The position numbers and the translations under genes were made by a program. From assembly GCA_035509435.1 (NCBI GenBank), contig DATJLR010000007.1:65555-129554 (forward strand): a stretch of DNA of 64,000 bases, written 5' to 3'. This stretch comes from Minisyncoccota bacterium. GTDB lineage: Bacteria > Patescibacteriota > Minisyncoccia > UBA6257 > 2-01-FULL-56-20. Positions 8,018 to 27,624 of the stretch are shown here, one piece after another; the first letter of the stretch is position 1; the number at the start of each line of letters is the position of its first letter. The notes beneath the pieces are model-generated. The model was not told the DNA's origin, did no database searches, and was given only the letters and a program-made list of their open reading frames with translations.

Positions 8018-8575
8018 CTAGTGGGACCAGATGATCTGGCCCTTATAGCCCGTCGCGAGCCTTACCTGTTGATCTATCCGCTGGTCAAAGCGGATATTGT
8101 GAACCGCGGCCATCGAGTTGATCGTCCCCTTGAGGACGTTCATCCCTATTCCGACGGTTCGCCAACGCCCCCCACGTGCATAGAGTGTGCGGCTGTATCG
8201 GTCGATCATGGCATTCATCGCCACGTTAGCAACAACTGTGCTAACTGTGTCGCGTTTGCCAAAGACGCCTGCCCAGCCGTTCTCTGTCGTGTAATAGGAA
8301 GTGAGGTATGAGCCGTCACTCCGTTCCGCGACCGTGGGGTGCCCCAGCAACCTTGCGGTTGTGGTCATATCAAATGCCGTCCCTCCGGCAAGGAAGAGCT
8401 CGGATGCCCTGAACGCGCGGCCGGGTTTTTGTGGAACCCGCCTCGGCAAAGGAGCATCCGGCCTTTCAATGCCCAGAAAGGACGTGCTTTGAGAGTTGGC
8501 TGGCAATGGGGTTACGAGGCCCATCGCCAACAACGCGCCGAGAAACAACCGGGCGCGGATGGTAGCAAGGTACAT
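8018..8575 (-). CDS. Secreted hypothetical protein (signal peptide)
   Basis: 185 aa with an N-terminal hydrophobic signal (LFLGALLAMGLVTPLPANSQ). It is the last gene of the pilus/adhesin gene string. Confidence 0.4.
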   Translation of the reverse strand: MYLATIRARLFLGALLAMGLVTPLPANSQSTSFLGIERPDAPLPRRVPQKPGRAFRASELFLAGGTAFDMTTTARLLGHPTVAERSDGSYLTSYYTTENGWAGVFGKRDTVSTVVANVAMNAMIDRYSRTLYARGGRWRTVGIGMNVLKGTINSMAAVHNIRFDQRIDQQVRLATGYKGQIIWSH

Positions 8576-8730
8576 GGTAGTACTCTCCTTCTAGCATCAG
8601 CAACGATGTTCTGTCCTGTGTGCTCCAAAAATTCTACCATACATTTGCGATTTTGGCAACCCCCTCTCTTTTCCCTCTCTATTAAAACGAAAACAGCCCC
8701 AGGCAAAAGCCTGAGGCTGTTTGAGTTGAA

Positions 8731-11409
8731 CTACTGCGCTCCCGGGCAGCCGGCGCCGTTCGGATTCTGTTCGCAGAGGCTGGAGCCGCCTACCGTCACT
8801 GTGGCATTGGAAGTCACCGTTGACCCGGCGCCGCCATAATTGCTGTTCACGCACGTGAGAGTGTAGGCGGTGGTGCTCGTGGGGGTCACCGCGAACGGAT
8901 TGGCCGTGGTGTCGATGGTGCCCTGGGACGAGAGCGATGTCGAGGACAATATCGTGCTCCCCTGCGTGAGCTGGCACGCCGTCACGTTCGAGCAGCTGTA
9001 GCTCAGGCCCGAGGATTCAGGAATGACGATCGATGAAGGGTTCGCGGTGAGCTTCGGACTGCAGACGGGGCAGTTGACGCCCGGAGTGCACGCCGGCGGC
9101 GGGAGCACCGTGATCGTCACTGTTTGCGAAACGCTCGGGTTTGCCGTCGACGTTACCTTGATCGTCACGGTCGTCGTCGTGTTCACCGTAGCGGGCGGCG
9201 TGTAGACGCCGGTCGAAGAGATCGTGCCGCCGCCCGAGACCACGGTCCATGTGACGCCTGGTGCCCCGGGCTGGCCGTTCTGGGTGGTCGTTGTCGCGTT
9301 GCAATCGCTCGTGCCGTTCGTATAAGTAGAGCTCGGCGTGCAGCTCACCGTGATGCCCGTGACAGGCGCTTCAGTGACCGTGATCGTGTCGGTGCCGGAC
9401 TTCGAAGGATCCTGGTTGGAGGTGCCTTTTACGGTCACAGTGATCGAACCTGCCACCGATGCAGGGGGTGTGTAGACGCCGGTCGAAGAGATCGTGCCGC
9501 CGCCCGAGACCACCGTCCACGTGACGCCTTGGCCGGAGCCGCCGCCAATGGTCGCCGTGCAGTTGCTTGTTTCCTCGGTATTGATCGGGCTCGGCGCGCA
9601 GTTCACGCTCACACTTGTGACGGATCCGCCCGGACCGCCGCCTGTGACCACGGTGATCATGCCGGTGTTGGACTTCGAAGGATCCTGGTTGGAGGTGCCT
9701 TTGATCGTGACGGTCGTCGTCGCAGCGACTGACGGGGGCGGCGTATAAACGCCGGTTGAAGAGATCGTGCCGCCGCCCGAGACCACCGTCCACGTGACAC
9801 CCTGGCCGGAGCCGCCGGTGATGGTCGCGGTGCAATTACTCGTTTGGGTAGTGTCGATCGGATTCGGCGCGCAGTTCACGCTCACACCGGTGACAGAGCC
9901 TCCTCCTCCTCCGCCGCCGCCCGAGCCGCCGGTCGGAGTCACTGTGATCGTGCCGGTGCCCGATTTCGAAGGATCATCTTTTGACGTTCCCCTCACCGTC
10001 ACCGTTGTCGTCGCGTTCACCGTCGCCGGCGGCGTGTAGACGCCGGTCGAAGAGATCGTGCCGCCGCCCGAGACCACCGTCCACGTGACGCCGCCGCCCG
10101 AGCCGCCGCTTACCGTCGCGGTGCAGTTGCTCGTCTGCGTAGTGTTGATCGGATTCGGCGCGCAGCCGACGCTTACGCCGGTGACAGGATTACTGCCGCC
10201 AGATCCGGGCGTGACGGTAAAGGTAATGGTAAGGACGGCGGTCGGTGGAGGCATAACAGTTCCCGGCGAGGAAGCTCCGGTAAATACTATTGTTCCGGTT
10301 TTTGTCGTTCCCGCCGCTAACCCTGCCGCATTTGCTGTAATGGTGACACTTTGCGAAGCATTACCTGAAGCACCATTCGTAATGCCTCCGGCATTTGTCG
10401 AAGGGGAAGCGGAGAGCCACGAGGAATTAGACGTAGCTGTCCACGTCAGCTTCGATCCCGGGGCACCGGTATTCGTTATCGTGACCGGACTTGTAACCGA
10501 ACTTCCGGCGGCGGCGCTGAGCGGTAGCGACGTGGGATTGACCGCAATATTGGCTTCCGGATCCCAAAGTATGATATACGACACCGTTCCGGAAGCTGTC
10601 AGTGTTTGAGAGGATGGAGTAGCGGTGGAGAGGCTGACGGCCTCAGCGGTTGAGCCGACAACGCCTCTCACGAGAGAGAGCATGGTCGCAAGGAATCCCC
10701 CGCTCTTTAATGAGGAAGGTGCCAACTTGATGGAGTTGAAAACATATGACTGTGGAGTCAGGAGCGAAACCGTATTGAGAGGCAAAATAATGCTGCCCGC
10801 TCCGGCAACCGAGTCGCCTACCGCAGGCTGATTGGAATAAGTTTGAGAGGTTCCTTGGCAATTCGTACCGTTACAAACAGAGGTAGCGCCATCGGTGATG
10901 CTCCACTTTGCCGGAACAAGGACGCTGTTAACTACCGAATTCTCCGAAGTTACCTTGACGGTACCAAGAACCGGCGGCGGCGGCGTCCCCGGCGTAACGT
11001 TGATCGTGATCGTTGTTGTCGGATATTCATCGGGGTCAACGCTGTCTGAACAATCCGCGTTGATGGTGAATGTTCCCGTTCCGGCTGCAATGCCCGTCAC
11101 GGAGAAAACACCTTGGCCCGCGATGGGCCCACTTGTATCCTTTACAAGAGTTGCCGAAAAATCAGCCGGGGTGCTCGGAATATCAAGCTGACACACCACT
11201 TCTTCGCCCGCAATTCCTTTCCCGCAACCGGGTCCTGAAATGTTTTCCGAGATCGTCTGCCCCACCTGGACAGAATAGGGTCCCTGGCTTTGGAATGCAC
11301 AATTGGTCATGCCGGCCGCAGCAGCAAAAGCAGAATGCGGAACAGACGCGGCGAACATGCCGATCGCCAAGAAAAGGACCGACGCGACGAGTGCTAAAGT
11401 TTTTTTCAT
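8731..11409 (-). CDS. Large secreted surface protein with four tandem Ig-like (Big-type) repeats and a Cys-rich C-terminus
   Basis: 892 aa. Signal peptide MKKTLALVASVLFLAIGMFAASVPHSAFAAAAG. A ~90 aa unit (VNCAPNPI.T.QTSNCTATI.GGSGQGVTWTVVSGGGTISSTGVYTPP) repeats four times. C-terminus ACTPGVNCPVCSPK. Confidence 0.7.
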   Translation of the reverse strand: MKKTLALVASVLFLAIGMFAASVPHSAFAAAAGMTNCAFQSQGPYSVQVGQTISENISGPGCGKGIAGEEVVCQLDIPSTPADFSATLVKDTSGPIAGQGVFSVTGIAAGTGTFTINADCSDSVDPDEYPTTTITINVTPGTPPPPVLGTVKVTSENSVVNSVLVPAKWSITDGATSVCNGTNCQGTSQTYSNQPAVGDSVAGAGSIILPLNTVSLLTPQSYVFNSIKLAPSSLKSGGFLATMLSLVRGVVGSTAEAVSLSTATPSSQTLTASGTVSYIILWDPEANIAVNPTSLPLSAAAGSSVTSPVTITNTGAPGSKLTWTATSNSSWLSASPSTNAGGITNGASGNASQSVTITANAAGLAAGTTKTGTIVFTGASSPGTVMPPPTAVLTITFTVTPGSGGSNPVTGVSVGCAPNPINTTQTSNCTATVSGGSGGGVTWTVVSGGGTISSTGVYTPPATVNATTTVTVRGTSKDDPSKSGTGTITVTPTGGSGGGGGGGGSVTGVSVNCAPNPIDTTQTSNCTATITGGSGQGVTWTVVSGGGTISSTGVYTPPPSVAATTTVTIKGTSNQDPSKSNTGMITVVTGGGPGGSVTSVSVNCAPSPINTEETSNCTATIGGGSGQGVTWTVVSGGGTISSTGVYTPPASVAGSITVTVKGTSNQDPSKSGTDTITVTEAPVTGITVSCTPSSTYTNGTSDCNATTTTQNGQPGAPGVTWTVVSGGGTISSTGVYTPPATVNTTTTVTIKVTSTANPSVSQTVTITVLPPPACTPGVNCPVCSPKLTANPSSIVIPESSGLSYSCSNVTACQLTQGSTILSSTSLSSQGTIDTTANPFAVTPTSTTAYTLTCVNSNYGGAGSTVTSNATVTVGGSSLCEQNPNGAGCPGAQ
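9150..10260 (-). repeat. Four tandem ~280 bp near-identical coding repeats inside the 892 aa surface-protein gene
   Basis: The DNA motif gtgccgccgcccgagaccaccgtccacgtgac recurs near 9222, 9497, 9770 and 10058. Confidence 0.7.
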
Positions 11410-11410
11410 A

Positions 11411-11860
11411 TTATTTGACGAGATAGGTTATGGTTGCGTGTGATCCGCTGCCTTCCGACTCGATCACCACCTGCAGCTGATCGGCGCCCTGAGTTGCCGT
11501 GAGAACCTCATATGTAGGCTGCGTCGTAAGTGAACCCGTCAACTGCCAGTTGCTGTTTGAAAGGTACGCCTCATAATCACCAAAGAGCGTCGCCATGGAA
11601 CTCGATGAGTCATATTCTGCAGTATATTGATTGGTGCTCGTCGAGTAAGCGATGGAATAACTCCCACCCACTGCGGCGTTTGTATCCAAAATAAGATCTT
11701 TCGGGAACTGGCTCACGAGCTGACCCTGCGGCGCATACACCGGAGCAGGACCCGACGCGACCGGCGCCTTGGGCATCGTTGCCCACGCTATCCATACGAT
11801 AGCTACGACCACGACCACCGCTACGCCCACCCAGGCCCATACCTTTTTGGAGTCAGTCAT
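11411..11860 (-). CDS. Membrane-anchored hypothetical protein
   Basis: 149 aa. N-terminal TM segment WAWVGVAVVVVVAIVWIAWA. Tightly packed between two surface-protein genes. Confidence 0.45.
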   Translation of the reverse strand: MTDSKKVWAWVGVAVVVVVAIVWIAWATMPKAPVASGPAPVYAPQGQLVSQFPKDLILDTNAAVGGSYSIAYSTSTNQYTAEYDSSSSMATLFGDYEAYLSNSNWQLTGSLTTQPTYEVLTATQGADQLQVVIESEGSGSHATITYLVK

Positions 11861-11967
11861 ACCTTTATCATAGCAGAGTAGAGTGGGAAGGGGGTGTGGA
11901 TAAACAAAGCCCCCTCCCGATTACTCGAGAAGGGGCTAGGGCTATTTCTCCGGTGGTTGCCGGAAGG

Positions 11968-13632
11968 TCAATACTTTGCCTTAGGAATGGTGAACGGGTT
12001 GCAGGTGGCCGCCGAGGAACAAGCGTATGAAACGCTCCCCTCTGCGTTGACCGTGAGCCACGTGGGGAGAACGGGAACCATTACCCCCGGGATCGGCGTG
12101 GCTGCTCCGGTGCTCGGATTGAGCACCGTGAACGTTCCTGCGGAATCCGGCACATCGGCATTGCCTATCACAGCAACGTCGTCTGCCATATCCGCAGTAA
12201 GCGACACGGGGGTTCCGGGCAGTGTGACGTTATTGCCCACCGTCTTCAACGTTGATTCATTGAAGATGGCGGCGATCCCATCACCGTACGAAACAACCAC
12301 ACCGAGACCCAGCGAATCGAACACCACAACGTCCGATCCTCCGGGAGCTTCCGACGTGATGCCGCTGATCGGCTGAGAATTGACCAGCGTCATGGTGTCG
12401 ACGTTGACGACATTGATGGCCGGTCCGCTGCCTCCTACCGTGAGGACGTAGGCGTACGTGACGCCGTTCGTTACCCCCATTGTAAGCGACTGCGGATCTG
12501 CTCCAACGTTCAAGCTCACGAGGTGCGTTGTTACAAACGGAGATCCGGTGATGCTGCCGCACGAAAGGTTATTCGCCGCCGCTGGCTGCAAAAGACACTC
12601 GTAGCCATTTTCCGCCGCGCTCTCCGTAACCGGATTTGTATCGTTCAACTGTGGCTCCGGAGTGTCGGTCATACCACCGTTTTCGTCGTAGACTCCTCCA
12701 TCAACAATCACGAATCCCGTGACATCATTGTCCACGGCAATACCGTAGGTGGGGGCGCCGACGAAGAACTTTCCGTCGGGCGCTCCCGCTGCCGTGTACT
12801 TATCCACGTATCCGTTCAGAGGCTGTCCGTTGAAAAGATTCTGGCCCTGGACGACCTCCGATGGGTTCAGGCAGAAAATTTCTCCCGCCTTCGAAGCCGC
12901 GCACATGTTGTGGGAGTACAATGCGAACGAAACCGCGTTTGAACATCCCGTCCCATCCGCCTTGCACACCTTTGCCTGAAAATATCCCGAGGTCTCATGA
13001 ACCTGGTCGATCCCCAGAACCACTTGGGCTTCTCCGGAGTTGACCAGTTGAGAACTCAAAATATTTGCGTCGGGCGTGATGACTATCTGATCACCGGCAG
13101 CGAAATTCGCGCCGGTGAACGTCATGAGGGCGCCCCCGCATTGGCTAAGACACCACTGCACCGCAGGGGCGACCGATGTCAGCGTGGGAGTTGGAGGCGG
13201 CGGCGTTGACACCGGATTGATGGTGATCGTCGCGGAACCCGTTACGTTTGTGTAGCCAGGAACCGTTGAGGCCGCGGAGACCTTCGCGCTGGTGGTGGCC
13301 GTGATGGACGAAGAAGCGGTAAACTTCCCCGTCGTATCGATCGTTCCGTCGGTTGACGGACTGACCGACCACGTGACCGCCTGCGAAGGGTTGTTGGTTC
13401 CGCTGACCGTTGCAGTGAGCTGCTGGCTTGCGCCGGCATTCACTGTTGCGGTCGAGGGACTTACAACGACCGCCGTCACCGTCGTGGTTGTGTTACCGCC
13501 GCCGGATCCGGTAGGGCTTCCGCCTCCGCACCCTGCCGCAACGAGAGAGAAAATGGTGAAGGCAACGACCAAGCCGGACAGCTTGGTCGCGATTCGAGAC
13601 GTAAACGTAGCGAAGCTTGTGCTGCCGCGCAT
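11968..13632 (-). CDS. Surface lipoprotein with a Big_2 (bacterial Ig-like) domain
   Basis: 554 aa. Lipobox LVAAGCGGGS. Big_2-like VTAVVVSPSTATVNAGASQQLTATVSGTNNPSQAVTWSVSP. Beta-rich C-terminus. Confidence 0.6.
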   Translation of the reverse strand: MRGSTSFATFTSRIATKLSGLVVAFTIFSLVAAGCGGGSPTGSGGGNTTTTVTAVVVSPSTATVNAGASQQLTATVSGTNNPSQAVTWSVSPSTDGTIDTTGKFTASSSITATTSAKVSAASTVPGYTNVTGSATITINPVSTPPPPTPTLTSVAPAVQWCLSQCGGALMTFTGANFAAGDQIVITPDANILSSQLVNSGEAQVVLGIDQVHETSGYFQAKVCKADGTGCSNAVSFALYSHNMCAASKAGEIFCLNPSEVVQGQNLFNGQPLNGYVDKYTAAGAPDGKFFVGAPTYGIAVDNDVTGFVIVDGGVYDENGGMTDTPEPQLNDTNPVTESAAENGYECLLQPAAANNLSCGSITGSPFVTTHLVSLNVGADPQSLTMGVTNGVTYAYVLTVGGSGPAINVVNVDTMTLVNSQPISGITSEAPGGSDVVVFDSLGLGVVVSYGDGIAAIFNESTLKTVGNNVTLPGTPVSLTADMADDVAVIGNADVPDSAGTFTVLNPSTGAATPIPGVMVPVLPTWLTVNAEGSVSYACSSAATCNPFTIPKAKY

Positions 13633-13762
13633 AGACGTTCCTCCTATTCCTTATAGTATTGAGATTATGCCGCCGTCAGGCGCGTGCCTGACGTGCTGCC
13701 AAGACTATAGCAAAATTATCAAATAGTGTCAAATTAGCGCGGCAAAAACAGGGCTCTTGACG

Positions 13763-14413
13763 TCAGCACTGTATCGTCCCCCCGCCCGCGTAACAGTCGA
13801 TGGAGCGGGCGCTCACGGTGGTCTGGAGATTCACCACGTCGTTCTCGACCGCCGTGTCGGTGGAACTCGGCGCGATGCCTATGGAGACCGTGACGCGCGG
13901 CGGCCAGTGGTCGCCTTCCGTCTGGCCATACAGCTGGAACTGCAGATATTTTACCGACACCGTGTCGCCCGTGAGCGACTGCGGCGCGGAGCTGAGCGTT
14001 GAGCTCTCCACAAGCTGCCACGCAAGCGATCCCGTCGTGGGCCGTTCGTAGACGATGCGGTCGCCCTGCGCGTCGTAGAAGTCGAGCGCGTTGCACGTCC
14101 ATGTGCCCGCGGTCGCTCCCGGCGCGCTGGAAAACGTACAGCCGCAATCCGCATTGGCCTTGCCCGCAACCGATCCCGGAACGCCGCTCCCCGGCGTATT
14201 GCCGCCCACCGTGTTGCAAAAAAGGTAGCCGGTGCGGATCTGGCGCGCCATTTCCTCGAGCGTGATGCTGATATTGCTCTCCGCGGAAATAAGCGACGAC
14301 ACCTGCCGCTGGGTGCGCACCGCATTCGCGAACGCGCCGACCGCGATCGTGATGATGATCGTAAAAAGGCCGACGGTGATGAGCATTTCTATAAGCGTAA
14401 ATCCTTTCTTCAT
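13763..14413 (-). CDS. Type IV minor pilin / pseudopilin
   Basis: N-terminus MKKGFTLIEMLITVGLFTIIITIAVG is a class III prepilin signal (G/FTLIEM). Its ATG overlaps the upstream gene's stop (ATGA at 14410-14413). Confidence 0.6.
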   Translation of the reverse strand: MKKGFTLIEMLITVGLFTIIITIAVGAFANAVRTQRQVSSLISAESNISITLEEMARQIRTGYLFCNTVGGNTPGSGVPGSVAGKANADCGCTFSSAPGATAGTWTCNALDFYDAQGDRIVYERPTTGSLAWQLVESSTLSSAPQSLTGDTVSVKYLQFQLYGQTEGDHWPPRVTVSIGIAPSSTDTAVENDVVNLQTTVSARSIDCYAGGGTIQC

Positions 14414-14940
14414 GGCTGGTAATGATAAAAGATGTCCTCAAGCGTGATCGTGTTCCCGAGCGCGCCGCTTGACCATGTGACGCTCGACTGCACATCGATG
14501 CTCTGGCCGTTGTTCGTCACCTTTATATTGCGGACGAAATCCGTTGCCGTTGCCGCGAAAGGATTGTTGCTATAGAGATGGGTGGTCGGATTGAAATACA
14601 ATTTGGTATTGGGCGCGCCGCTTTGAAAACTGAGGCCCGCGCAGCTGGTGGTCGTATAATCGATCGGGAAATAATAGTGGGCGCCCGCGTACGGGAAACA
14701 GCTCCCCCAGCTGTAGGAGCCGTTACCCCCAAGCTGTTCATACACGTCATGGTCGATCAGGTTCTTTACGATCTCGATCCCTTCCGCCGCAAGATATGTT
14801 GCCTGCGTGTCGTCCGCTGTCGTGCGGTTCAGCTGGAAGGATTTTGTAAGGAGCGTGACGATGCCCACGAAGCCGACCATAAGGATGCTGAGCGCGATGA
14901 GCGCTTCCACAAGTGTCTGTCCTTTGCGGGAATTGATCAT
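14410..14940 (-). CDS. Type IV minor pilin / pseudopilin
   Basis: MINSRKGQTLVEALIALSILMVGFVGIVTLL prepilin-like N-terminus. ATGA overlaps at both ends (14937-14940 and 14410-14413). Confidence 0.55.
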   Translation of the reverse strand: MINSRKGQTLVEALIALSILMVGFVGIVTLLTKSFQLNRTTADDTQATYLAAEGIEIVKNLIDHDVYEQLGGNGSYSWGSCFPYAGAHYYFPIDYTTTSCAGLSFQSGAPNTKLYFNPTTHLYSNNPFAATATDFVRNIKVTNNGQSIDVQSSVTWSSGALGNTITLEDIFYHYQP

Positions 14941-15545
14941 AGGCTTACTTGCCCTTCGGCGTTTACGGTAATGGCGCGCACGAGATTGTTATCTACGGTG
15001 CCAATGTAAACGTACGAGGACGGCGCGGGATAAAGGAATGTCGTCCCGTTGCGGCTGATCAGCGTGAACGGGTCGGGAGGATAGAACAGGACATACTTGA
15101 TGGTGTCGCTCGCGGGGCTGGAAGGATTCTTCAGCACAACGCCCGGCGCGGTGTGGACCTGCCAGCTGCCGCCGGCGTATTCGGCGACATCCGCCGTGTT
15201 GACGGCGGCGGTCGTGCTCGCGAGGGTCGGACACACGAACCGTCCCGGATATTGCGCCGAGCTGATCGCGGAGTTGTATGCAAAGAGGGAATATTGGGAA
15301 TTTGCGAGGTCGAAATATACGCCGTACGCGCACGTCTTGGAGTTCGTGCTGTATGTGGCAATGGAAAGCTCCTTTGCCTCAAGGATGAGCTGCGCCACCT
15401 TGGACTCCTCTATGGAAAGCGCGATCTGATCCTGCCCCGCGTGGCTGTATACGATGGCCAATCCCGAAAGCAACGCCGTGATGGCGATCACGACAAGCAT
15501 TTCTACCAATGTGAATCCCTTCCTCGTTTTCATGCGTACATTCAT
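14937..15545 (-). CDS. Type IV minor pilin / pseudopilin
   Basis: MNVRMKTRKGFTLVEMLVVIAITALLSGLAIV prepilin N-terminus. Confidence 0.6.
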   Translation of the reverse strand: MNVRMKTRKGFTLVEMLVVIAITALLSGLAIVYSHAGQDQIALSIEESKVAQLILEAKELSIATYSTNSKTCAYGVYFDLANSQYSLFAYNSAISSAQYPGRFVCPTLASTTAAVNTADVAEYAGGSWQVHTAPGVVLKNPSSPASDTIKYVLFYPPDPFTLISRNGTTFLYPAPSSYVYIGTVDNNLVRAITVNAEGQVSL

Positions 15546-16442: not shown

Positions 16443-16504
16443 ATCATCATGATAACAAAAAATCCCGCCGGAAGGCGGGATCTTTGCAGATGGCCCACAA
16501 AACG

Positions 16505-19360: not shown

Positions 19361-19412
19361 GGAATAATCTTACCACATTGCCCTTTTGTCCCCCAAATAA
19401 AGGGTCAATTTC

Positions 19413-19739: not shown

Positions 19740-19795
19740 AGAATGCTTTCATAATACCACCTCCATAGCCCAACCCGCTCAAATTTGTGGATAAC

Positions 19796-20815
19796 TCAGG
19801 GAATTGTATATGTACTTGTAGCTCCCGACGGAAGAGTATATTGCAATTCTGAATCAGAAAGCCATAGAGGATGATAGTAATAAGTTGGATCGGTGGTGGT
19901 GGTGACAAGATAGTTTTGCCCAGTAAGGAGATTGTAAATATAGAAAGAGGTAATTTGGCCTGCTTGCTGAGCTTGATCGCGATATTCCTGATCGATCTGG
20001 GAATCTGCGGTCCATGGAGCAACATTAGTTTCGTAGGTTGTCATACCTACATCGGGATTAAGAGCATCGCCGCCCATGGTGGTGTGGGGAGCTGAGAACA
20101 CTTGATAAGACCAGTTTGATGTGTCGATACGCAGAAAACCTAAAGTGTCTGCTTCATCATTAGAATCAAACCATAGATATCTTCCATCATGACTCCATCC
20201 TCCGTTTTCAAGATCGAAATTCACGATTGTATTCGATTCTTGCTCCGGGATTTGGGAAAGAGACAGGGAAAAAACAATATTATCGTTACTTAGGTCGTAG
20301 ACCTCCAAAGAGGGCATCGTCGAAGTTGTTAAAAAGGAAACTGCGGCCATCATGGTTTGGCTTGAATTCACCCTGAAATCCTCAGCAGTGCCTATTTCTT
20401 GACTGTTGCCGCTGTAATCATATTTCCATACTTGGATGTTAAAATTGGGCAGCACCTTCCCATGAACATAATCATAATTAAATTCTCGCATCACATAAAA
20501 ATTACACGAGTATAATTCGATGGGATGATAACTGGGGAATAGATCATTTATAATAAAAGAGGAATTGGCATTGTTCGCTTTATCTTCAATAGTAATTTTT
20601 ATTGTATCGGTAGATGTGAGGGGGGTGTTAATAGAATAGCTTGCCGACTCGTCGCCTGAAAGGCATCCAGTTGTCGTAGAGGAGCTAGCTACATTCGCGA
20701 CCACTCCAGATGGCGAAGTCGAAGCTGGGGATAAATAATGGCGAAAGACAATGAGAGTTAAGGCTACGATGGTTATAACTATGCACGACACTATAATCCA
20801 AAATCTTCTGCTCAT
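19796..20815 (-). CDS. Secreted/anchored beta-propeller-like hypothetical protein
   Basis: 339 aa. N-terminal TM FWIIVSCIVITIVALTLIVF. WSHDGRYLWF and YIYNLLTGQNYLVTT resemble TolB/WD-like propeller blades. Confidence 0.4.
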   Translation of the reverse strand: MSRRFWIIVSCIVITIVALTLIVFRHYLSPASTSPSGVVANVASSSTTTGCLSGDESASYSINTPLTSTDTIKITIEDKANNANSSFIINDLFPSYHPIELYSCNFYVMREFNYDYVHGKVLPNFNIQVWKYDYSGNSQEIGTAEDFRVNSSQTMMAAVSFLTTSTMPSLEVYDLSNDNIVFSLSLSQIPEQESNTIVNFDLENGGWSHDGRYLWFDSNDEADTLGFLRIDTSNWSYQVFSAPHTTMGGDALNPDVGMTTYETNVAPWTADSQIDQEYRDQAQQAGQITSFYIYNLLTGQNYLVTTTTDPTYYYHPLWLSDSELQYTLPSGATSTYTIP

Positions 20816-20851
20816 CTTCTAATCCTAACACATTGATTTTTGCATCCGCCC

Positions 20852-21262
20852 CTATCCGGAAAAGAATATATTGCCATCAAGATTTTGAGCATAGGCAGCA
20901 ACGTTCGGCGTATACCCGCTCGAACCTCCCGCGCCTATACCCGCCCCGTCATGCCCCGCGTAGTAAATGGTACAAGTAAGCACACAACCGCTTCCATCCC
21001 AACTTTCCGATCCATTTGAGGGAGATAAGCCACCCTCTCCAATAGAGGACGTTGCATAGTAAGTTGCAAAATTTATATTCGTGTTAAATCCGCCACCATA
21101 TGAAGCAATGATTTCCGTCCCGCTTGCGGTTAGAGTTCCCCAGGTTGAATATGAAGAATATCCATCCGGAGGAAGACTCAGAGAGGTACTCGCTGCAAAA
21201 GAAAAGTGTGGGAGTAAGAATATCCCTAATCCTATTGCTAAGATGAAAATATATTTTTTCAT
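20852..21262 (-). CDS. Small secreted Gly/Ser-rich protein
   Basis: 136 aa. Signal peptide MKKYIFILAIGLGIFLLPHFSFA. Confidence 0.4.
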   Translation of the reverse strand: MKKYIFILAIGLGIFLLPHFSFAASTSLSLPPDGYSSYSTWGTLTASGTEIIASYGGGFNTNINFATYYATSSIGEGGLSPSNGSESWDGSGCVLTCTIYYAGHDGAGIGAGGSSGYTPNVAAYAQNLDGNIFFSG

Positions 21263-21304
21263 GGGTTGTTTTGTAATGTTTTTTCGGCTTAGATCTTAAA
21301 AAAT

Positions 21305-21652
21305 TTAAAGATTCGAAAAAACCAGAAGCCAAAAAATGAGGTATAAAAGTAATGGCACTAAAATAAAGCCAATTGCTAAAAATACCCATACAAGCCACCG
21401 CTTTTTTGTATGCCACCATTTTTGAAAAGCAGGTACAATAATCCAAAATCCTGAGACGCCAATGAGTATTAAAACTATTGCTACAGACATTACAAAAATA
21501 AAAAATGTCCCGGATACGTTCGCATAGGTAGCGTAAATGCCATTCGCTTCAGCTAGGATACAGCCTAAAATTAGTAATATAATTCCGGCTGATACATTTA
21601 CCGCTGTCCGCCATCCTTTCGGAACTATTTTTGAATCCTCATTTACCTTCAT
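21305..21652 (-). CDS. Small integral membrane protein
   Basis: 115 aa with 3 predicted TM helices. Confidence 0.4.
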   Translation of the reverse strand: MKVNEDSKIVPKGWRTAVNVSAGIILLILGCILAEANGIYATYANVSGTFFIFVMSVAIVLILIGVSGFWIIVPAFQKWWHTKKRWLVWVFLAIGFILVPLLLYLIFWLLVFSNL

Positions 21653-21805
21653 ATTGTTCTGGTTTCAAAAACCGCCAATTGGAATGGCGGCGATAAAAAT
21701 AGATGGGGGGCTATGCGCTCGACTAGGAATCGTTGCCTCATTGGAATGCCTTCAGTATACCAACATTCCCAATCTACACCTGTGGATAACCCCGAAATCG
21801 GTGTC

Positions 21806-23231
21806 CTACCGTGTTTCGAACAATGCCAGATATGGTCCAATATATAGTTGCTGCACCGCGCGATGGAACGGTTGGGCTACCGCTAACTTGCTCAGATCGG
21901 CAGTGGGAACAACAAGAAAGTTTGAACTAGCCGGAAGCTCGCCTGGATTCTGGATAGAACTAACGTTTGTGCCGCTATAAAACATGATGGTATTCCCCGG
22001 CACCCAGTCGTAAAGAAAAATGTCCTTCTGGGAATCTTGGGCATTAATAAGAAGTCCGACGGTCTTTTCATCCGACAGATAGCCGAGGTATTGCGGCACC
22101 TGGAAGAAGGCAGTATTTATGGTATTCCAAAAACCAATGACTAAAATACCGCAACAGGCAAGGGCCAAGATGGTGGTTTTGAATTGCCGTGGCACACGAT
22201 CAACCAATCCGAACAGAACTGCACCGACAAAGATAAGCGCAAACGGGAATATGGGTAGAAGATATGTGAATATTTTTGTGCGTGCGGCGAGAAACATCGC
22301 AAAGATGATCATCGTCGACAAGAAACCGAACCACACGATCTTTTTTTTTCTGATCGCTTTTTCCCATAAAAAACAGCGATACAATTGCAGCGAGGAATAG
22401 AACGGTCCACGGCTGGACCTGCGACCAGAGCGCCTCCAAATAATCAAGGGACGTAAGCGGCTGGTCCCCAGGCGACTGTGTCCCTCGATTAAACACTTGC
22501 TGAACGATATAGCTCTGCCAAAATGCGGGTCCGTAGTGGATCGTCTCATAGATCGGCCACGGCAGGATGATAAGCAGCATCAACCCCAACCCGATAAGAA
22601 AATATTTATTTTGGGTCCAAGCCCACTTCTTATAAAGAATGCTCAAAATCACCATGGGGATGAAAGCAAGGAGGCCGATCACGCTCTTCGTCATAAATCC
22701 CACACCGATGCCGATTCCCACACCTAAAAGCCATTTTGCATGTCCGGGTTTAGTCCCCCTAATAAAACACCAAGTGGCGAAAAGGATCGCGGCGATGGTC
22801 GCTACATCCATCCTTACTTGCCGCGCAAACACGAAGAACGGCGCCACGGCAAGAAGCGATATGCCACAGAAGAACGACAACCATACATCCTCCGAAAGTT
22901 CCCAAACGATCAGAAAAAGAAATGCTACCGCAAGAATATTAAAAAACGCTGATGGAATTCGAATGGCAAATTCCGAAGCTCCAAAGAATTTCATGCTTAA
23001 AGCAACAAGCCAGATATAAAGCGGTGGTTTCTCAAACCAGTTGGTGCCGCCGTATTGAAGCGTCATCCAACTGCCATGCGCCAGCACATTCTGTGCTATC
23101 TGGGCATAGGTCGCTTCGTCGTAATCGGCAAGCGGAAGCCTGCCGAGCTGAAAAAAAGTGAAAACCATTGCGACTACGACCAGAACCAAAAAGAGGATGG
23201 CCCAAAGTTTTTTTCGAGAGGGAATGGGCAT
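21806..23231 (-). pseudogene. GT-C fold glycosyltransferase (GT39/ArnT-PMT-like), split by a frameshift at an A9/T9 homopolymer (22341-22349)
   Basis: N-terminal piece (track ORF 22200..23231) has ADYDEATYAQIAQNVLAHGSW...FEKPPLYIWL, the DE loop typical of ArnT/PMT. The C-terminal piece (21806..22549) continues the TM-rich body. Both frames read KKK across the same 9-nt run, and one base fewer would restore a ~460 aa ORF. Confidence 0.6.
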
Positions 23232-23243
23232 TCAGTTTGTTCC

Positions 23244-24962
23244 CTACCCTTCCTCCGTCTCTCTTATGATCTCCTCGATCGGCACGCTTCCCTTCAGCGC
23301 CTTCACGATGCCGTCCTGGCGGAGCGAGATCATGCCCTGCGCCTTTGCCTGCGCGGTGATCTTTTGCGTGGTGGCGCCGCTGCTCACGATGTTCTCGATC
23401 TCCTTCGTGATGAGGAACGCCTCGTAGATGCCGGTGCGGCCGACGACGCCGCGGCCCTTGCACGTGGCGCAGCCCTTGGCGTGATAGATCTGGTACGGCG
23501 GCTTGAACTCTGCGGCCACCTCCGCCGGCAGGCCGGCGAGCGAACGCTTGATGATCTCCTGCACCTCCGGGGCCGCCTCTTCCGGCGCTTTGCAATCCGG
23601 GCAGAGCACGCCCACCAGGCGCTGTGCGATCACCAAGCTTACCGACACCGGGATCAGGAACGGCTCCACCTTCATGTCGATGAGGCGCGGGATGACGCCG
23701 GCGCTGTTATTGGTGTGCAATGTGCTGAGCACGACGTGGCCGGTGAGCGCCGCCTGCACGGCAAGGCCCGCGGTCTCGTTGTCGCGGATCTCGCCGACCA
23801 TGATCACGTCCGGGTCCTGGCGGAGGATCTGGCGCAGCCCCGACGCGAAGTCGTAGCCGATCTCCGGCCGCACCTGCGACTGGTTGATGCCGCTCACGAA
23901 ATATTCCACCGGGTCCTCGAGCGAAACGATGTTCACGTCCTCGGTGTTGAGGTCCTGCAGGAACGCGTAGAGCGTCGTCGTCTTGCCGGAACCGGTCGGG
24001 CCCGTGATGAGCACCATGCCGAACGGGCGGTTCAGGCCTTCTTTGATGACGGCGCGCGTCGGCGGCAGGAGGTCCAGGCTCTCGAAGTTCTTGAGGCCGG
24101 TGGTCGGGTCAAGCACGCGGATCGCGATCTTTTCGCCGAGCGGCGTGGGAAACGTGGCGACGCGGAAGTCGATGTCGCGGTCGAAGATCTTGGCGCGGAA
24201 GCGGCCGTCCTGCGGCACGCGCGTCTCGTCGATCTTTAAGCTGGAAATGACCTTGACGCGCGATGTGACCGGCTGGGCGAGCTCCACCGGAAGCGACGCC
24301 ACCTCGTGCAGATCGCCGTCGATGCGCAGGCGGATGCGGAGCGAGCGCTGCTGCGGTTCAATGTGCACGTCGGATGCTTTGCTCAAGACCGCTTCTTTGA
24401 ACGTGTCGGCGACGATCTTGATGATCGGCGCGTCGGCGCTGTCGCCGCCGGAGAGTTCCACTGCCTGCTGGCCGCCGCCGCCCTCTTTTATATTCAGTCC
24501 GCGCACCGCCGCTTCGATCTCCGTGCGATACGGCGAATATTTGCGGAGCACGGCCTGAAGATCGCCGTACGAGATCAGGTATACGCCGAGATTGATGTGG
24601 TTCTGCCGCGCGATGAACTTGATCGCATCCTGCGCTTTCACGTCGTCCGGATGCAGCATGCCGATCACGAGGAGTCCGTCCTGCAGGCTGATCGGGACAA
24701 GCTGGTAGGTGCGCGCCGTCTCTTCCGGAATGAGCCCCATCAGTTGGTCGTTCAGCATGGTGGGGTCGATCTTCTTGTACGGCACCTTGAGCAGCTCGCT
24801 CTTGAGCGCCACCATCTGCTCGTCGGGGACCAGGCGCTCGCGGCCGATGATCGTCTCCGGCGGATCGCCGCTCACGATCGCGTCGCGCTTGAGCCGCGTG
24901 GCGACCGATTCGTTTATCAGCCCGCGGCTCTGCAGTTGTTGGATCAGCTCATCATTCGTCAT
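23244..24962 (-). CDS. pilB: Type IV pilus assembly ATPase PilB (GspE family)
   Basis: 572 aa. N-terminal GspII-like domain. Walker A LITGPTGSGKTTTL. Tetracysteine CPDCK...CATCKGRG. Confidence 0.9.
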   Translation of the reverse strand: MTNDELIQQLQSRGLINESVATRLKRDAIVSGDPPETIIGRERLVPDEQMVALKSELLKVPYKKIDPTMLNDQLMGLIPEETARTYQLVPISLQDGLLVIGMLHPDDVKAQDAIKFIARQNHINLGVYLISYGDLQAVLRKYSPYRTEIEAAVRGLNIKEGGGGQQAVELSGGDSADAPIIKIVADTFKEAVLSKASDVHIEPQQRSLRIRLRIDGDLHEVASLPVELAQPVTSRVKVISSLKIDETRVPQDGRFRAKIFDRDIDFRVATFPTPLGEKIAIRVLDPTTGLKNFESLDLLPPTRAVIKEGLNRPFGMVLITGPTGSGKTTTLYAFLQDLNTEDVNIVSLEDPVEYFVSGINQSQVRPEIGYDFASGLRQILRQDPDVIMVGEIRDNETAGLAVQAALTGHVVLSTLHTNNSAGVIPRLIDMKVEPFLIPVSVSLVIAQRLVGVLCPDCKAPEEAAPEVQEIIKRSLAGLPAEVAAEFKPPYQIYHAKGCATCKGRGVVGRTGIYEAFLITKEIENIVSSGATTQKITAQAKAQGMISLRQDGIVKALKGSVPIEEIIRETEEG

Positions 24963-24983
24963 GTCTTCATTCTACCATGTTGG

Positions 24984-25028
24984 CAAAAAGAAACCCTCTG
25001 CTGTTTTGCGAGAGGGGTTCCTTTTTTG
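24984..25028 (-). terminator. Intrinsic terminator/attenuator between the pilMNO-small gene operon and pilB
   Basis: Hairpin CCCTCT-gctgttttgcg-AGAGGG (24994-25016) flanked by A/T runs on both strands. It may work bidirectionally. Confidence 0.45.
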
Positions 25029-25033
25029 CGATG

Positions 25034-25333
25034 CTATGGAGAAACGAACGGGTTCGGCCGGCCTACGGCTGCCGGGCCCTGCGGCGTCGGCGGCGGAATG
25101 GTGGATTTGAGCGCTTCGAATGCGGCTCCCTGCACAACGGTCTGCGGCTGGAGCGAAAGCTGGGTTATGGGCGCGATAGTGCCGATGGTCCCGTTCGAAG
25201 GGATCGTCACGAGCTGCGGCTGCGCGAAGAATATATAGTAGACGGCTGCGGCGGCGACCACGAAGAACACGAGCCACCCGAAGATGCCCCACAGATTGCC
25301 TTTTTTGCCGCTTTCTTCAACGATGATCGCCAT
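25034..25333 (-). CDS. Small single-pass membrane protein of the pilus assembly operon (possible PilP-like analogue)
   Basis: 99 aa. TM LWGIFGWLVFFVVAAAAVYYIFF, then a Pro-rich tail. It follows the PilO-like gene. Confidence 0.4.
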   Translation of the reverse strand: MAIIVEESGKKGNLWGIFGWLVFFVVAAAAVYYIFFAQPQLVTIPSNGTIGTIAPITQLSLQPQTVVQGAAFEALKSTIPPPTPQGPAAVGRPNPFVSP

Positions 25334-25335: not shown

Positions 25336-25977
25336 TTATGGTGCCTGATAATAGGTTACGACCGTTATGGTGTAGTTGAACGAATCCGGGTTGAGCGTCT
25401 GCCCTTTTACGGGAGTGACGCCGGTGTCGCTGGGCTGGAATGTTATTGCGGTCACATCAAAGAGGCGGATGTTCGATTCCAATCCCTGGAGAAAGCTCTT
25501 CAGCGATTCGTAACTGCCGGACGCCGTCACCTGGAACGAGACCGTGCCCAGCGGCTTTACGATGGAACCGCCCGTGGCCGCGTCCGCGATCCCTCCGCTC
25601 GTCGTCCCGTCATCCGACGGCGCCTGTTCCTGCACGGCCTGGAGCGAGACCGCCGTGCCCTGTATCGTAACGCCCGTGTTCGCCCCGATCCCGTATATCT
25701 GCGCGAGCGCGCCCGCGACGTCGGGCCCCACCGGCAGCGACATCGCGACAAGCTGGCTCGACGAAGAATCGCTTTGATAGCTGGCAAGCAGCCCTTTTAT
25801 CTGGGTCGCCACCTGCGTCTCGTTCTGATACAGCACATTCTCGCTCTCTGCCTGCCCCTTGACGCTTTCGAGGTTCGTATACGCGGGGACGATGAGCTCA
25901 AAATAAACGACGAGCGCGCCCGCGATGAGCAGCGTTGCGAGAAGGATGCTGGTAAGCCGTTTGCTTTCCTGTTTCAT
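25336..25977 (-). CDS. PilO-like pilus inner-membrane assembly protein
   Basis: 213 aa. N-terminal TM, then a coiled coil and a periplasmic domain. Third position after pilM and the PilN-like gene. Confidence 0.45.
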   Translation of the reverse strand: MKQESKRLTSILLATLLIAGALVVYFELIVPAYTNLESVKGQAESENVLYQNETQVATQIKGLLASYQSDSSSSQLVAMSLPVGPDVAGALAQIYGIGANTGVTIQGTAVSLQAVQEQAPSDDGTTSGGIADAATGGSIVKPLGTVSFQVTASGSYESLKSFLQGLESNIRLFDVTAITFQPSDTGVTPVKGQTLNPDSFNYTITVVTYYQAP

Positions 25978-25978: not shown

Positions 25979-26542
25979 TTATTGGCTTGTCTCGGACATT
26001 ACGGAAGGATTTACGATGAGGGTGATGTTAAAGCTCCATCCGGTCTGGCCGAGCTCGGGAGCGTTCACGCCCGTGACATCGACGGACGAGACCTCGGGAG
26101 AATTCTCGAATATCGCGATCTGCTGGTTTACATCCGCCTCGGACGCCGCTGTCCCCACAAGGACCACCTGGTTGCCGGACTGGAGAGAGAACGAACGATA
26201 GTAGACGTTCGCCTCCGTATTCTGCTCAAGCCACGAGAAGAGCTGCGACGAAAGCACGTGGCTCTGGAGCAGCGTCTGGAGGTTCGCGATCTGCGAATAG
26301 AAATTTATCAGCTGCGTCTGGTCCGTCGGCGAGATGGACTGGTTCAGCGCGCTCACCTTGTTCTGTGTCGCCGTAAGCTGGGACTGCAGGTACGGTTCAT
26401 ACCCGAACGCAAGGCCGCAATAGATGATGATGGCGAAGAAAAGGAGCCCTCCGGAAAAGAGGAGCGCGCCCGGCGCAAAGCCGGTCGTCCCGGAGGAGGG
26501 CTCCCGTCCTAATTGCTCTATTACTTTTTCTGGAAGAGGCAT
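25979..26542 (-). CDS. PilN-like pilus assembly protein
   Basis: 187 aa. Short cytoplasmic N-terminus, one TM (LLFSGGLLFFAIIIYCGLAF), then a coiled coil. Immediately downstream of pilM. Confidence 0.45.
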   Translation of the reverse strand: MPLPEKVIEQLGREPSSGTTGFAPGALLFSGGLLFFAIIIYCGLAFGYEPYLQSQLTATQNKVSALNQSISPTDQTQLINFYSQIANLQTLLQSHVLSSQLFSWLEQNTEANVYYRSFSLQSGNQVVLVGTAASEADVNQQIAIFENSPEVSSVDVTGVNAPELGQTGWSFNITLIVNPSVMSETSQ

Positions 26543-26547
26543 TGGTG

Positions 26548-27624
26548 TTATACGAATTCCTTCATGCCGAGGCCGAGTACGACGGTCATCGGCGCATCAA
26601 GCTCGGGCAGGAACGGCGCGATCGCATCCGGATATTCGAACCGCGAGAACGGCGAAGCCTTCACCACCGGGACCTCGAACTGCTTCTCAAAATATTTCTC
26701 GATGCCGGAGAGATTGGCTCCGCCCCCGGCAAGGACGACACGCTCCGCCTGCATCGCCGTAGGATACTGCTGATGGTAGGTATACGTCTCCTTTTTCACT
26801 TCATTAATTATAGCATCAAGAAACGGCATCATTATTGTGGACAACTCATAGTTGGGTCCGGTGCCCAATATCCCCCGCTCCTTTTTGAGCTCTTCCGCGC
26901 GCAGCGGATTGATCCCCAGGCTTGACGCGAGCGCCTGCGTGAGCGACGCGGCGGCAATATCGCTCTGCGCGCTCCAGGCAAGGACGCCCTTTTCCATGAA
27001 GATGATATTCGTGGACCGGGAGCCGATGTCCACTATTATGGTGGGCGTCGGGTCGTTTGCGAAGATCCGCGCGACGGAAAGCGATTCGATCTCGAGGGCG
27101 CGCAGCCGGAGGCCGGCCGCCGCGAACATGCGCTGGTATTTCTTGATCTGCTCCTGCGGCACGGAGATGAGCAATATTTTCTGGTGCGCGAATCCTTTAT
27201 CGTCCTGATAGTCGCCGACCTTCATCCAGTCGAGCGCCACCTCGTCGAGCGGCATCGGCACGTATTGCTTTGCCTGATACACGAGCGCCTTCGCGATGTC
27301 CTTTGCCTCCATCGCCGGGAAGTCCACCAGCGTCATGAAGACATCGAATGGCGGGAGGGACGCGACCGCGTCGCGAGTGTTCGTGCCGAGCTCTTTCACG
27401 AGCGCCTTCAGAAGCGCCACTGCGTCCTCTTCGAATATCTTAAGCCCGCTTGTCTGGAGCGCCTGGTTGGCGCGCGCGAGATATCCGCTCGATTCCAATA
27501 TGCCGTAATTCACGACGCGCGGCGCTTTCTTTCCCGCGGCGATCTCCGCCGCCTTTATGGAGGTCGTACCGATATCGATGCCGAGATAGGATTCTGACCT
27601 GAAGAATGAGAAAGGGTTGTTCAT
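26548..27624 (-). CDS. pilM: Type IV pilus assembly protein PilM (actin-like ATPase fold)
   Basis: YLGIDIGTTSIKAAE N-terminal phosphate-1 motif and DIGSRSTN phosphate-2 motif. 358 aa. Confidence 0.8.
   Translation of the reverse strand: MNNPFSFFRSESYLGIDIGTTSIKAAEIAAGKKAPRVVNYGILESSGYLARANQALQTSGLKIFEEDAVALLKALVKELGTNTRDAVASLPPFDVFMTLVDFPAMEAKDIAKALVYQAKQYVPMPLDEVALDWMKVGDYQDDKGFAHQKILLISVPQEQIKKYQRMFAAAGLRLRALEIESLSVARIFANDPTPTIIVDIGSRSTNIIFMEKGVLAWSAQSDIAAASLTQALASSLGINPLRAEELKKERGILGTGPNYELSTIMMPFLDAIINEVKKETYTYHQQYPTAMQAERVVLAGGGANLSGIEKYFEKQFEVPVVKASPFSRFEYPDAIAPFLPELDAPMTVVLGLGMKEFV

Follow-up and report, generated by a model that had tools for sequence, protein, structure and literature searches.

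A probable type IVa-like pilus cluster of a Paceibacteria cell without an outer membrane, with several predicted transcription units and a probably decaying insert between pilB and pilT

The stretch of DNA analysed here, hereafter the window, comprises 64,000 nucleotides (nt) of contig DATJLR010000007.1 (assembly GCA_035509435.1, Minisyncoccota bacterium, positions 65,555 to 129,554), with coordinates counted from its first letter. Its minus strand carries, within 8018-27624, a set of pilus genes which we read as a chromosomal type IVa-like pilus (T4aP) cluster of a Paceibacteria cell without an outer membrane, organised in several units and interrupted by a decaying island. We put the probability of this reading at roughly 85%. 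An original prediction, made from the sequence alone, had already described a secretin-less type IV pilus core and an envelope of the monoderm or Candidate Phyla Radiation (CPR) type. This is correct, but it has been published before for such organisms (PMC6744442). What qualifies the cluster as a T4aP is the joint presence of a PilB ATPase, PilT, PilC with two T2SSF domains, PilM, PilN and PilO, and a prepilin peptidase together with class III pilins. These genes, and comFC beside them, are as follows (aa, amino acids; MFE, minimum free energy):

27690-28376, plus strand: comFC, ComF family (DZR_2 1.5e-8, residues 8-58; Pribosyltran 2.5e-8, residues 134-220)
26548-27624, minus strand: pilM, actin-like cytoplasmic alignment protein (PilM_2 6e-34; TIGR01175 170.6 bits vs cutoff 133)
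25979-26542, minus strand: pilN (PF05137 5.3e-9, 36.4 bits vs cutoff 22.8)
25336-25977, minus strand: pilO (Pfam PilO only 0.004, GspM 1e-4; assigned by an orthologue profile)
25034-25333, minus strand: single-pass membrane protein of 99 aa, in the pilP position after pilO
24985-25030, minus strand: hairpin and T tract after the 99-aa gene (MFE -18.6 kcal/mol, z -4.5)
23244-24962, minus strand: pilB, extension ATPase with an N-terminal MshEN domain (T2SSE 6e-125; MshEN 7e-14)
18287-19360, minus strand: pilT, retraction ATPase (TIGR01420, the PilT/PilU family, 435 bits vs cutoff 319)
17057-18268, minus strand: pilC, platform protein (PF00482, i.e. T2SSF, twice, 1.6e-55)
16505-16999, minus strand: pilA, major pilin candidate, KGFTLIE (N_methyl 2.4e-8)
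15585-16442, minus strand: pilD, prepilin peptidase (A24_N_bact 1.7e-27; Peptidase_A24 4.7e-12)
14937-15545, minus strand: minor pilin 1, 202 aa (198 aa if the second ATG is the start), KGFTLVE (N_methyl 3.8e-8)
14410-14940, minus strand: minor pilin 2, 176 aa (N_methyl 1.8e-5; PilV 5e-7, below cutoff)
13763-14413, minus strand: minor pilin 3, 216 aa (N_methyl 7e-6)

Families were assigned by hidden Markov model (HMM) searches of the open reading frames (ORFs) of the window against Pfam and NCBIfam with the model cutoffs, searches which the original prediction had asked for, and all core components were identified in this way or by profile. In particular, pilO was recognised by a profile of 36 orthologues which matches the PilO structures of Myxococcus xanthus (3jc8, 3.7e-11) and Pseudomonas aeruginosa (2rjz, 0.007) in the PDB. 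The best NCBIfam model for PilB is the type IV-A PilB model, at 517 bits, while the ComGA model reaches 237 bits. The class III signal motif G(F/Q)TL(I/V)E is present in all four pilins, and pilD probably starts with the ATG at 16442, giving 285 aa, rather than with the GTG of a 318-aa ORF; gene callers also place it at 285 aa. Several claims made from the letters alone agree with these assignments. Namely, the HMM-supported pilus genes do all lie on one strand, the minor pilins are indeed coupled by ATGA start/stop overlaps (14937-14940 between the first and the second, 14410-14413 between the second and the third), and the small transmembrane (TM) protein is followed by a terminator before pilB. 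The divergence of comFC from pilM, across a spacer of 65 nt, is also as described. The comFC product has the N-terminal zinc ribbon and C-terminal phosphoribosyltransferase of ComF proteins and scores 94 bits with TIGR00201 (comF), below the cutoff of 233, and it reads as a divergent member of the family.

A genome scan with one genome per species returned 566 PilB relatives, and the best 80 of these were compared with the window. All 80 are metagenome-assembled genomes of Patescibacteria, with PilB identities of 56-86%, and the identity of PilT to its closest relatives is 94%. Gene order in these loci, some of which are referred to below by their L numbers, was tabulated by tblastn, and many of them are truncated. 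The order comFC / pilM-pilN-pilO-99aa-pilB-pilT-pilC-pilA-pilD-three pilins recurs in approximately 50-70 of the 80, with median intergenic gaps of 10-96 nt. Many of the PilB matches were about 2500 nt long, and an intein or insertion within the relatives' PilB was considered and ruled out, since tblastn shows PilB and its adjacent paralogue PilT joined into one match. The gene comFC adjoins pilM in at least 62 of the 80 loci, and this conserved adjacency speaks for a genuine functional connection to DNA uptake. In other words, of the competence role that had been read from comFC, the association stands, while a role in competence only is not established.

None of the window ORFs matches the PilQ secretin or PilP, and none of the large ORFs of the window (those of at least 400 aa, which the check for secretins and outer-membrane families covered) matches an outer-membrane biogenesis family. 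The lack of both PilQ and PilP from the cluster is thus confirmed for the window, and their absence genome-wide is what the CPR literature reports (PMC6744442). The monoderm or CPR-type envelope that had been proposed is likewise upheld, given that the PilB relatives are all from Patescibacteria and that the source itself is a member of Candidatus Paceibacterota. The cluster consequently belongs with the monoderm/CPR form of the T4aP and not with the diderm form. In the diderm pilMNOPQ operon of Pseudomonas and Myxococcus, pilM, pilN and pilO follow each other in the same order as here, and PilO of the window is homologous to that of M. xanthus; however, the place of pilP is taken in the window by the small membrane-anchored protein, and there is no pilQ in the cluster. 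In monoderms such as Clostridium and Streptococcus sanguinis, the T4aP consists of PilB, PilT, PilC, PilD, PilM, PilN, PilO and pilins, without secretin or PilP. These systems are, however, phylogenetically remote from the cluster described here and differ from it in gene order and accessory genes.

Closer counterparts are found within the CPR. In its passages on pili and competence, Meheust 2019 reports co-localised PilB, PilT, PilC, PilM, PilN, PilO and PilD, with pilins, in CPR genomes, in which PilQ was not found, fitting an envelope that is not Gram-negative; ComEC is given there for 86% of CPR genomes, DprA as widespread, and ComFC and ComFA as present (PMC6744442). The cluster in the window shares this composition, including the association with ComFC. 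That study works on protein families, though, and the passages in question do not give a fixed order with a divergent comFC; nor do they describe, and nor did our literature search find, the 99-aa gene after pilO, the promoter-like motif or the insertion site between pilB and pilT that are treated below. In cultured Saccharibacteria, twitching is ascribed by inference to a locus that encodes pilC, pilB, pilT, pilMNO and pilD along with five pilins, while a second pilus of these bacteria is needed for host binding and not for natural transformation (PMC12206443). The former, T4P-1 of Nanosynbacter lyticus TM7x, resembles the present cluster in being one PilT-containing locus with pilC, pilB, pilM, pilN, pilO, pilD and several pilins. 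It belongs, however, to a different CPR class and has five predicted pilins versus four here, and the T4P-1 passages of that paper do not mention comFC, a sigma factor neighbour or the surface protein pair discussed below (PMC12206443). Pilin sequences are not conserved between CPR classes.

The gene for the 99-aa protein follows pilO in 66 of the 80 loci at a median gap of 10 nt. The family shares an N-terminal MAIIIEEEK motif, a TM helix in which YYxFF is kept, and a GRxNPF motif at the C-terminal end; an RxPF-like motif resembles PilP. A search of 1.84 billion representative proteins recovered a family of 191 clusters, and the best 150 of the 191 are nearly all 92-104 aa long, with no longer, domain-bearing members among them. 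The protein has no convincing sequence match in Pfam, NCBIfam or the PDB and carries no family name. We considered it as a PilP homologue and rejected this, as none of 40 members matched PilP in Pfam and a PDB profile search returned no PilP chain. Diderm PilP is a lipoprotein with a PilN/PilO-binding N-terminal segment and a secretin-binding beta-sandwich, whereas the 99-aa protein has neither a beta-sandwich nor detectable similarity to it, and its resemblance to PilP by operon position is a positional analogy only. Beyond this family (best 150 of 191 clusters) no further occurrence of the GRxNPF protein came up, which apparently sets the cluster apart from the monoderm T4aP systems, and we regard the protein as a possible alignment-complex component specific to the CPR.

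Promoters and terminators were assigned as matches to consensus, and hairpins were folded for MFE and z. From such signals we predict that the cluster is not one operon. Namely, the hairpin after the 99-aa gene is followed by TGgTAGAAT, 6 nt before the ATG of pilB. In the case of pilT, an extended -10 box, TGTGGTAAGAT, stands 6 nt before the ATG, downstream of the island edge at approximately 19386, and is common to L001-L004. Upstream of pilA lies TGcTATAAT, and its terminator is at 16448-16475 (-19.5 kcal/mol). At pilB, pilT, pilD and the gene of a downstream 149-aa protein (p149), a TAnnnT box ends 6 nt before the ATG (24963-24980, 19361-19385, 16443-16460 and 11861-11872, respectively, all on the minus strand); it is preceded by TGn at pilB and pilT, and none of the four genes has a Shine-Dalgarno sequence. 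The position of the boxes suggests that the four mRNAs are leaderless. The units would then be pilMNO with the 99-aa gene (and with a second promoter inside pilM), pilB, pilT-pilC, pilA, and pilD with the minor pilins, followed by the genes downstream as three further units, i.e. that of a Big_2 lipoprotein, p149 with an 892-aa protein (p892), and that of a 185-aa protein (p185).

The one place where the window departs strongly from its relatives is the junction of pilB and pilT, for which an insertion had been claimed. The distance between the two genes is 3.88 kb here versus at most 350 nt in 65 of 72 relatives (median 96 nt; 20-260 nt in most), and the intervening DNA has a GC content of about 0.44 versus 0.60-0.68 in the flanks and 0.563 in the window, the drop falling exactly at the pilB stop and the rise just upstream of pilT. 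The stretch 19300-23300, junctions included, is identical in three assemblies, among them an ENA MEGAHIT contig and a Logan contig of SRR8879132; these three were probably built from the same reads. By its GC shift, its sharp edges and its recurrence in the assemblies, the insertion is real. It contains:

19386-23243, genes all on the minus strand: the low-GC island as a whole, 3.85 kb, GC 0.444
21806-23231, minus strand: GT39/PMT_2 (GT-C) glycosyltransferase gene with a frameshift (PMT_2 4e-21, PMT 2e-14)
21305-21652, minus strand: hydrophobic ORF of 115 aa that reads as a multi-pass membrane protein; called as a gene in the Logan assembly, no family above threshold
20852-21262, minus strand: ORF of 136 aa with a signal-like N-terminus, rich in Gly and Ser, no family found
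19796-20815, minus strand: ORF of 339 aa with a TM anchor and, after it, a beta-propeller (AlphaFold2 pLDDT 88.4)
19413-19739, minus strand: ORF of 108 aa, probably the 5' fragment of a gene for a secreted protein

Homologues of the island genes are lacking from all 80 related loci. The glycosyltransferase gene starts 12 nt past the pilB stop and is broken at a run of nine A (A9) at 22341-22349. With one A removed it encodes 474 aa and matches intact homologues of 474, 480 and 485 aa from end to end at 69, 58 and 49% identity, and the contexts of the first and the last of these are both non-pilus. An intact multi-pass enzyme of approximately 470-500 aa, as expected of GT39/PMT_2, is thus not encoded, the ORF being split at A9, and the gene is a pseudogene or an off-phase variant. 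The 339-aa protein, for which as for p149 an AlphaFold2 model was made, was also submitted to Foldseek and matches TolB and peptidase beta-propellers at approximately 1e-6; a 232-aa database record, VMA75_04585, is identical to its C-terminal part. Its homologues, at up to 57% identity, are in Patescibacteria, and two contexts examined are non-pilus, following unannotated proteins of 1000-1400 aa. Within the island, a direct repeat of about 100 nt occurs at 19690-19794 and 21692-21789 (minus strand), roughly 2 kb apart and with 74% identity in a 50-nt core. Each copy holds the 9-mer TTATCCACA, a -10-like box and an ORF start reading MRQRFLV, and leads to a 30-codon stub or to the 108-aa fragment.

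Inserts at the same junction were found in seven other genomes (L003 at 11720-14554, L010 at 9825-12713, L057 at 5585-8477, and L022, L024, L020 and L056). They measure 0.36-2.9 kb and all have a GC content below that of their flanks, and no other junction of the cluster has as many or as large inserts. The cargo of the two examined is unrelated, namely a hydrolase with unknown proteins in L003 versus an extra pilin with a dCMP deaminase in L010. For this reason, the idea that the similarly sized inserts (2.84-2.89 kb) of L003, L010 and L057 are one shared element was dropped. Nor is the island a recognisable mobile element, as no integrase or transposase family match, flanking direct repeat or tRNA at the edge was seen. 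We read it as foreign DNA captured between two conserved genes that are usable as recombination arms, and now decaying.

Beyond the minor pilins, the same strand continues with genes for secreted or anchored proteins:

11908-13732, minus strand: unit of a 554-aa protein (promoter 13704-13732, gene 11968-13632, terminator 11908-11937)
11411-11860, minus strand: p149, a TM anchor and an alpha/beta domain, with a promoter-like element at 11867-11903
8731-11409, minus strand: p892, a signal-like N-terminus and four Big_2-like repeats, starting 1 nt past the p149 stop
8691-8722, minus strand: terminator of p892 (14 bp, -27 kcal/mol, z -7.6)
8018-8659, minus strand: p185, 185 aa with a signal-like N-terminus, with its own TTGCCA-17-TAGAAT site at 8631-8659

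The original prediction had the cluster running straight into the first of these, a Big_2 lipoprotein. What lies between is a gap of 130 nt holding TTGACA-17-TGcTATAGT, which agrees with the consensus at 11 of 12 positions, and three strong terminators are found among the downstream genes. Moreover, transcription of the large proteins from their own promoters had been named beforehand as what would speak against their being a continuation of the operon, and promoter-like signals of their own are indeed what we found. The 554-aa protein has a Big_2 domain (1.2e-5) and a lipobox-like N-terminus; its gene has a 70-nt leader with AGGAGG before the ATG and ends in a 13-bp hairpin of -24.6 kcal/mol. 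The gene is absent from the two closest relatives, L001 and L003, where p149 follows the last pilin at 70-80 nt. As for p149 itself, a database record, VMA75_04540, is identical to it along all 149 aa, and it has 65 detectable homologues and a weak match to PF27226. Its model (pLDDT 88.9) shows a TM helix and then an alpha/beta domain, to which no fold could be assigned, as there is no PDB match at E 0.001 and the PsbP/DcrB/MTC28/EagT6 group matches weakly, with a best E of 0.017.

The description of p892 as a protein with four Ig-like repeats was a fair one. Its gene contains, at 9380-10187, a tandem unit of 291 nt in 2.9 copies with 78% matches at the DNA level, together with a diverged fourth, and the Big_2 domain present in the 554-aa protein can be aligned with one of the repeat units at 36% identity (E 4e-6). 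The similarity of the repeats points to a fairly recent expansion in the Ig-like region. To call these surface genes giant, on the other hand, was generous: secreted or anchored proteins they are, but at 554, 892 and 185 aa. Homologues of p892 follow p149 in L004, L006, L024 and L038. In contrast, homologues of p185 in the related loci were found in L014 and L021 only, in both cases upstream and on the opposite strand, and p185 is probably not part of the pilus system.

On the far side of comFC, the window continues with a block headed by the gene of an extracytoplasmic function (ECF) sigma factor, and then with genes on the plus strand:

29699-30250, minus strand: ECF sigma factor gene (Sigma70_r2 and r4)
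29180-29692, minus strand: ORF of 170 aa after the sigma factor gene
28389-29180, minus strand: ORF of 263 aa, third in the block
30420-30992, plus strand: dCTP deaminase (Pfam DCD 4e-43)
31709-32710, plus strand: ORF whose sequence reads like a thymidylate synthase

The block of three stands beside comFC in approximately 25-28 of the related loci. The 170-aa ORF is possibly an anti-sigma factor. The nucleotide-metabolism genes at 30420-32710 (plus strand), with a CYTH-domain protein among them, adjoin the pilus, comFC and sigma factor genes.

A further property of the region is a recurrent 9-mer, TTATCCACA, whose sequence is that of the DnaA-box consensus; the window has 4 copies versus 0.21 expected. 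Three of these four perfect copies are in the pilus region, on the pilus strand and intergenic, 21-29 nt upstream of -10-like boxes. Including variants, the sites on the minus strand are 26807-26844, 11867-11903, 21754-21789, 19751-19794 and 17042-17095. The first of them lies inside pilM, some 265 nt upstream of pilN, and has the form TTGTCCACA-N23-(TGc)TATAAT. The element of p149 is TTATCCACA-N22-TATGAT-N6-ATG, an architecture repeated before the p149 homologues of L001, L003 and L004, and at pilA of the window TTATCCCCA precedes TGcTATAAT by 33 nt. Across the 80 related loci there are 73 copies of TTATCCACA versus about 11 expected. However, 42 of the 73 are one pilM site (codons E-L-S-T-I), always with TAnnnT exactly 23 nt downstream, and raw enrichment was for this reason discarded as evidence, being mostly a single homologous site counted 42 times. 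We therefore relied on synonymous conservation and on the fixed spacing to the -10 box instead.

In a codon alignment of 60 pilM genes, the codons of the element are frozen (Ser TCC 98%, Thr ACA 90%, Asp GAT 98%, GCT 97%, Ile ATA 95%), whereas the mean third-position identity of pilM is 0.51 and the neighbouring Pro, Leu and Gly codons vary freely; the GCT is kept in 97% at a position where Ala is the residue in only 58% of the sequences. This is the pattern expected from selection on the DNA sequence itself, and we read the element as an extended -10 promoter that has a further site upstream. Among the other copies on the same strand, 13 of 19 have TAnnnT at 19-24 nt, versus 7% of random positions, and 10 of these 13 have an ATG 4-9 nt further; on the opposite strand such a box accompanies 1 of 12 copies. 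Same-strand copies are found upstream of pilA in 14 of 64 loci (with at most one mismatch), of p149 in 4 of 7 and of the ECF sigma factor gene in 6 of 27, including directly upstream of the latter in L001, L004, L007 and L011, while in the window that site is degenerate (CTATCCCCC) and preceded by a terminator. Upstream of pilB, pilT, pilC, pilM and the minor pilins the motif is essentially absent, with a single one-mismatch match upstream of pilB. The sites are single and at promoter positions, not clustered as in an origin, and DnaA is the obvious candidate for a protein binding them; our literature search found no paper linking the motif to pili or to CPR promoters. It is possible, though we would give it less than even odds, that the pilus genes of this clade share a dedicated cis-element, TTATCCACA, placed 20-24 nt (mostly 22-23) upstream of (TGn)TAnnnT. 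In that case, pilN, pilO and the 99-aa gene would have an internal promoter in the copy inside pilM, and further copies would serve pilA, the p149 and Ig-repeat pair and the neighbouring ECF sigma factor gene.

How firmly does the identification of a T4aP-like machine stand against other possibilities? Four observations weigh against it or against parts of it. PilB (equivalog cutoff 675), PilC and ComFC score below the NCBIfam equivalog cutoffs and are therefore divergent. None of comEC, dprA and comEA is in the 64-kb window, and DNA uptake rests on the synteny of comFC and on the literature. The number of promoter and terminator matches over the whole region is not above that in shuffled sequence, and weight is accordingly placed only on individual strong sites and on their conservation. 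Finally, the island puts 3.9 kb, with a glycosyltransferase gene possibly reached by read-through, after pilB, and it could disturb expression. If the cluster were instead a dedicated ComG-like competence pseudopilus with DNA uptake as its sole job, one would readily understand the conserved adjacency of comFC, the weak ComGC, ComGD and ComGE matches of the pilins, and the nucleotide-metabolism genes nearby, such as the dCTP deaminase; what is more, CPR bacteria depend on nucleotides that they scavenge and commonly carry ComEC and DprA (PMC6744442). That said, ComG systems lack PilT and PilMNO, all four of which are present and strongly conserved here, PilB favours the type IV-A model over ComGA by the scores given above, neither the ComGA nor the ComGB model reaches its own cutoff, both being outscored by the PilB and GspF models, and the equivalent Saccharibacteria locus is tied to twitching (PMC12206443). 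We regard a pure competence pseudopilus as quite improbable. A type II secretion system is more improbable still, to the point where we hardly reckon with it. Namely, the sizeable scores of the GspE, GspF and GspG models are those of homologous families, and the GspM match of PilO is weak, while PilT and PilM are above the cutoffs of their own families, GspC, GspD, GspL and GspK found no match in the HMM searches of the window ORFs, and CPR cells have no outer membrane to cross (PMC6744442, in its passages on the envelope).

Two other possibilities concern what is attached to the T4aP-like machine rather than the machine itself. Could the 554-aa protein, p149, p892 and p185 be adhesins that go with the pilus, share a transcript with the minor pilins and are presented on or by the fibre? 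They are on the same strand directly past the minor pilins, Big_2 Ig-like repeats are typical of adhesins, TTATCCACA is common to the p149 element and to the pilA and pilM-internal sites, and a p149-like gene beside a secreted protein or lipoprotein of 500-1000 aa follows the minor pilins in approximately 11 of 38 informative loci, all of the nearest clade. However, a near-consensus promoter and strong terminators split the genes into independent units, the closest relatives do without the 554-aa gene, p185 is unlinked, none of the four proteins has a prepilin signal, and more distant relatives carry a PilX-like small protein and an apparent DNA ligase in the same position. We therefore consider such an adhesin operon unlikely as a whole. 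Of the adhesins originally proposed downstream, one part is retained: p149 with p892, a pair that keeps its place in the nearest clade, could plausibly form a clade-specific surface module associated with the pilus, while the 554-aa and p185 genes look like independent cargo. Accessory genes for pilin glycosylation are known from Pseudomonas, where tfpO and tfpW stand beside pilA, and by analogy the GT39 island could be a functional module for glycosylating pilins or adhesins at the pilus locus, possibly phase-variable via A9. Its GT-C fold family, a start so close to the pilB stop that co-transcription is likely, and a frameshift that lies in a slippable homopolymer and is identical in the three assemblies would all agree with this. 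Yet the intact homologues nearest in sequence (69 and 49% identity) are located away from pilus genes, which also made us reject the enzyme as a conserved pilin glycosyltransferase partner, no related pilus locus has a GT39 gene, signs of decay are seen in the island's foreign GC, in a gene cut short and in a duplication within it, and unrelated cargo sits at the same junction in other genomes. Such a module is, in our opinion, very unlikely.

If the T4aP-like reading is right, the way in which the machine would work can be sketched from the known functions of the protein families involved. PilD would cleave and methylate the PilA prepilin and the three minor pilins, and the latter, being translationally coupled, would prime assembly, whereupon the PilC platform and the PilB ATPase would extend the fibre. 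The alignment complex would consist of PilM, PilN and PilO, to which the 99-aa membrane protein is probably to be added; PilT would retract the fibre, and a secretin would not be required. The conserved presence of comFC next door suggests DNA uptake as a use of retraction; by analogy with cultured Saccharibacteria, twitching or contact with a host would be another. The island, with its frameshifted GT39 gene, membrane-anchored beta-propeller and small membrane or secreted proteins, would be decaying cargo and not a part of the machine.

As a pilus cluster, the one described here adds little, being one more secretin-less type IV pilus, a hallmark of the CPR that is central to an episymbiotic, DNA-scavenging lifestyle. 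The comparative gain is the precise order conserved in Paceibacteria, with comFC and the ECF sigma factor operon attached. Moreover, the 99-aa protein, in the place that PilP occupies in diderms, is a candidate for a new component of the alignment complex, and the junction between pilB and pilT emerges as a site between two conserved genes that repeatedly takes up foreign DNA. The motif frozen in pilM, for its part, offers a testable handle on pilus regulation in uncultured organisms. If DnaA binds it, these organisms, which are incapable of making nucleotides themselves, would couple the expression of the pilus and of DNA uptake to replication or to nucleotide status. If it is a clade-specific regulator that binds, there would still be a pilus regulon, and it would include the 99-aa protein and the candidate adhesin pair.

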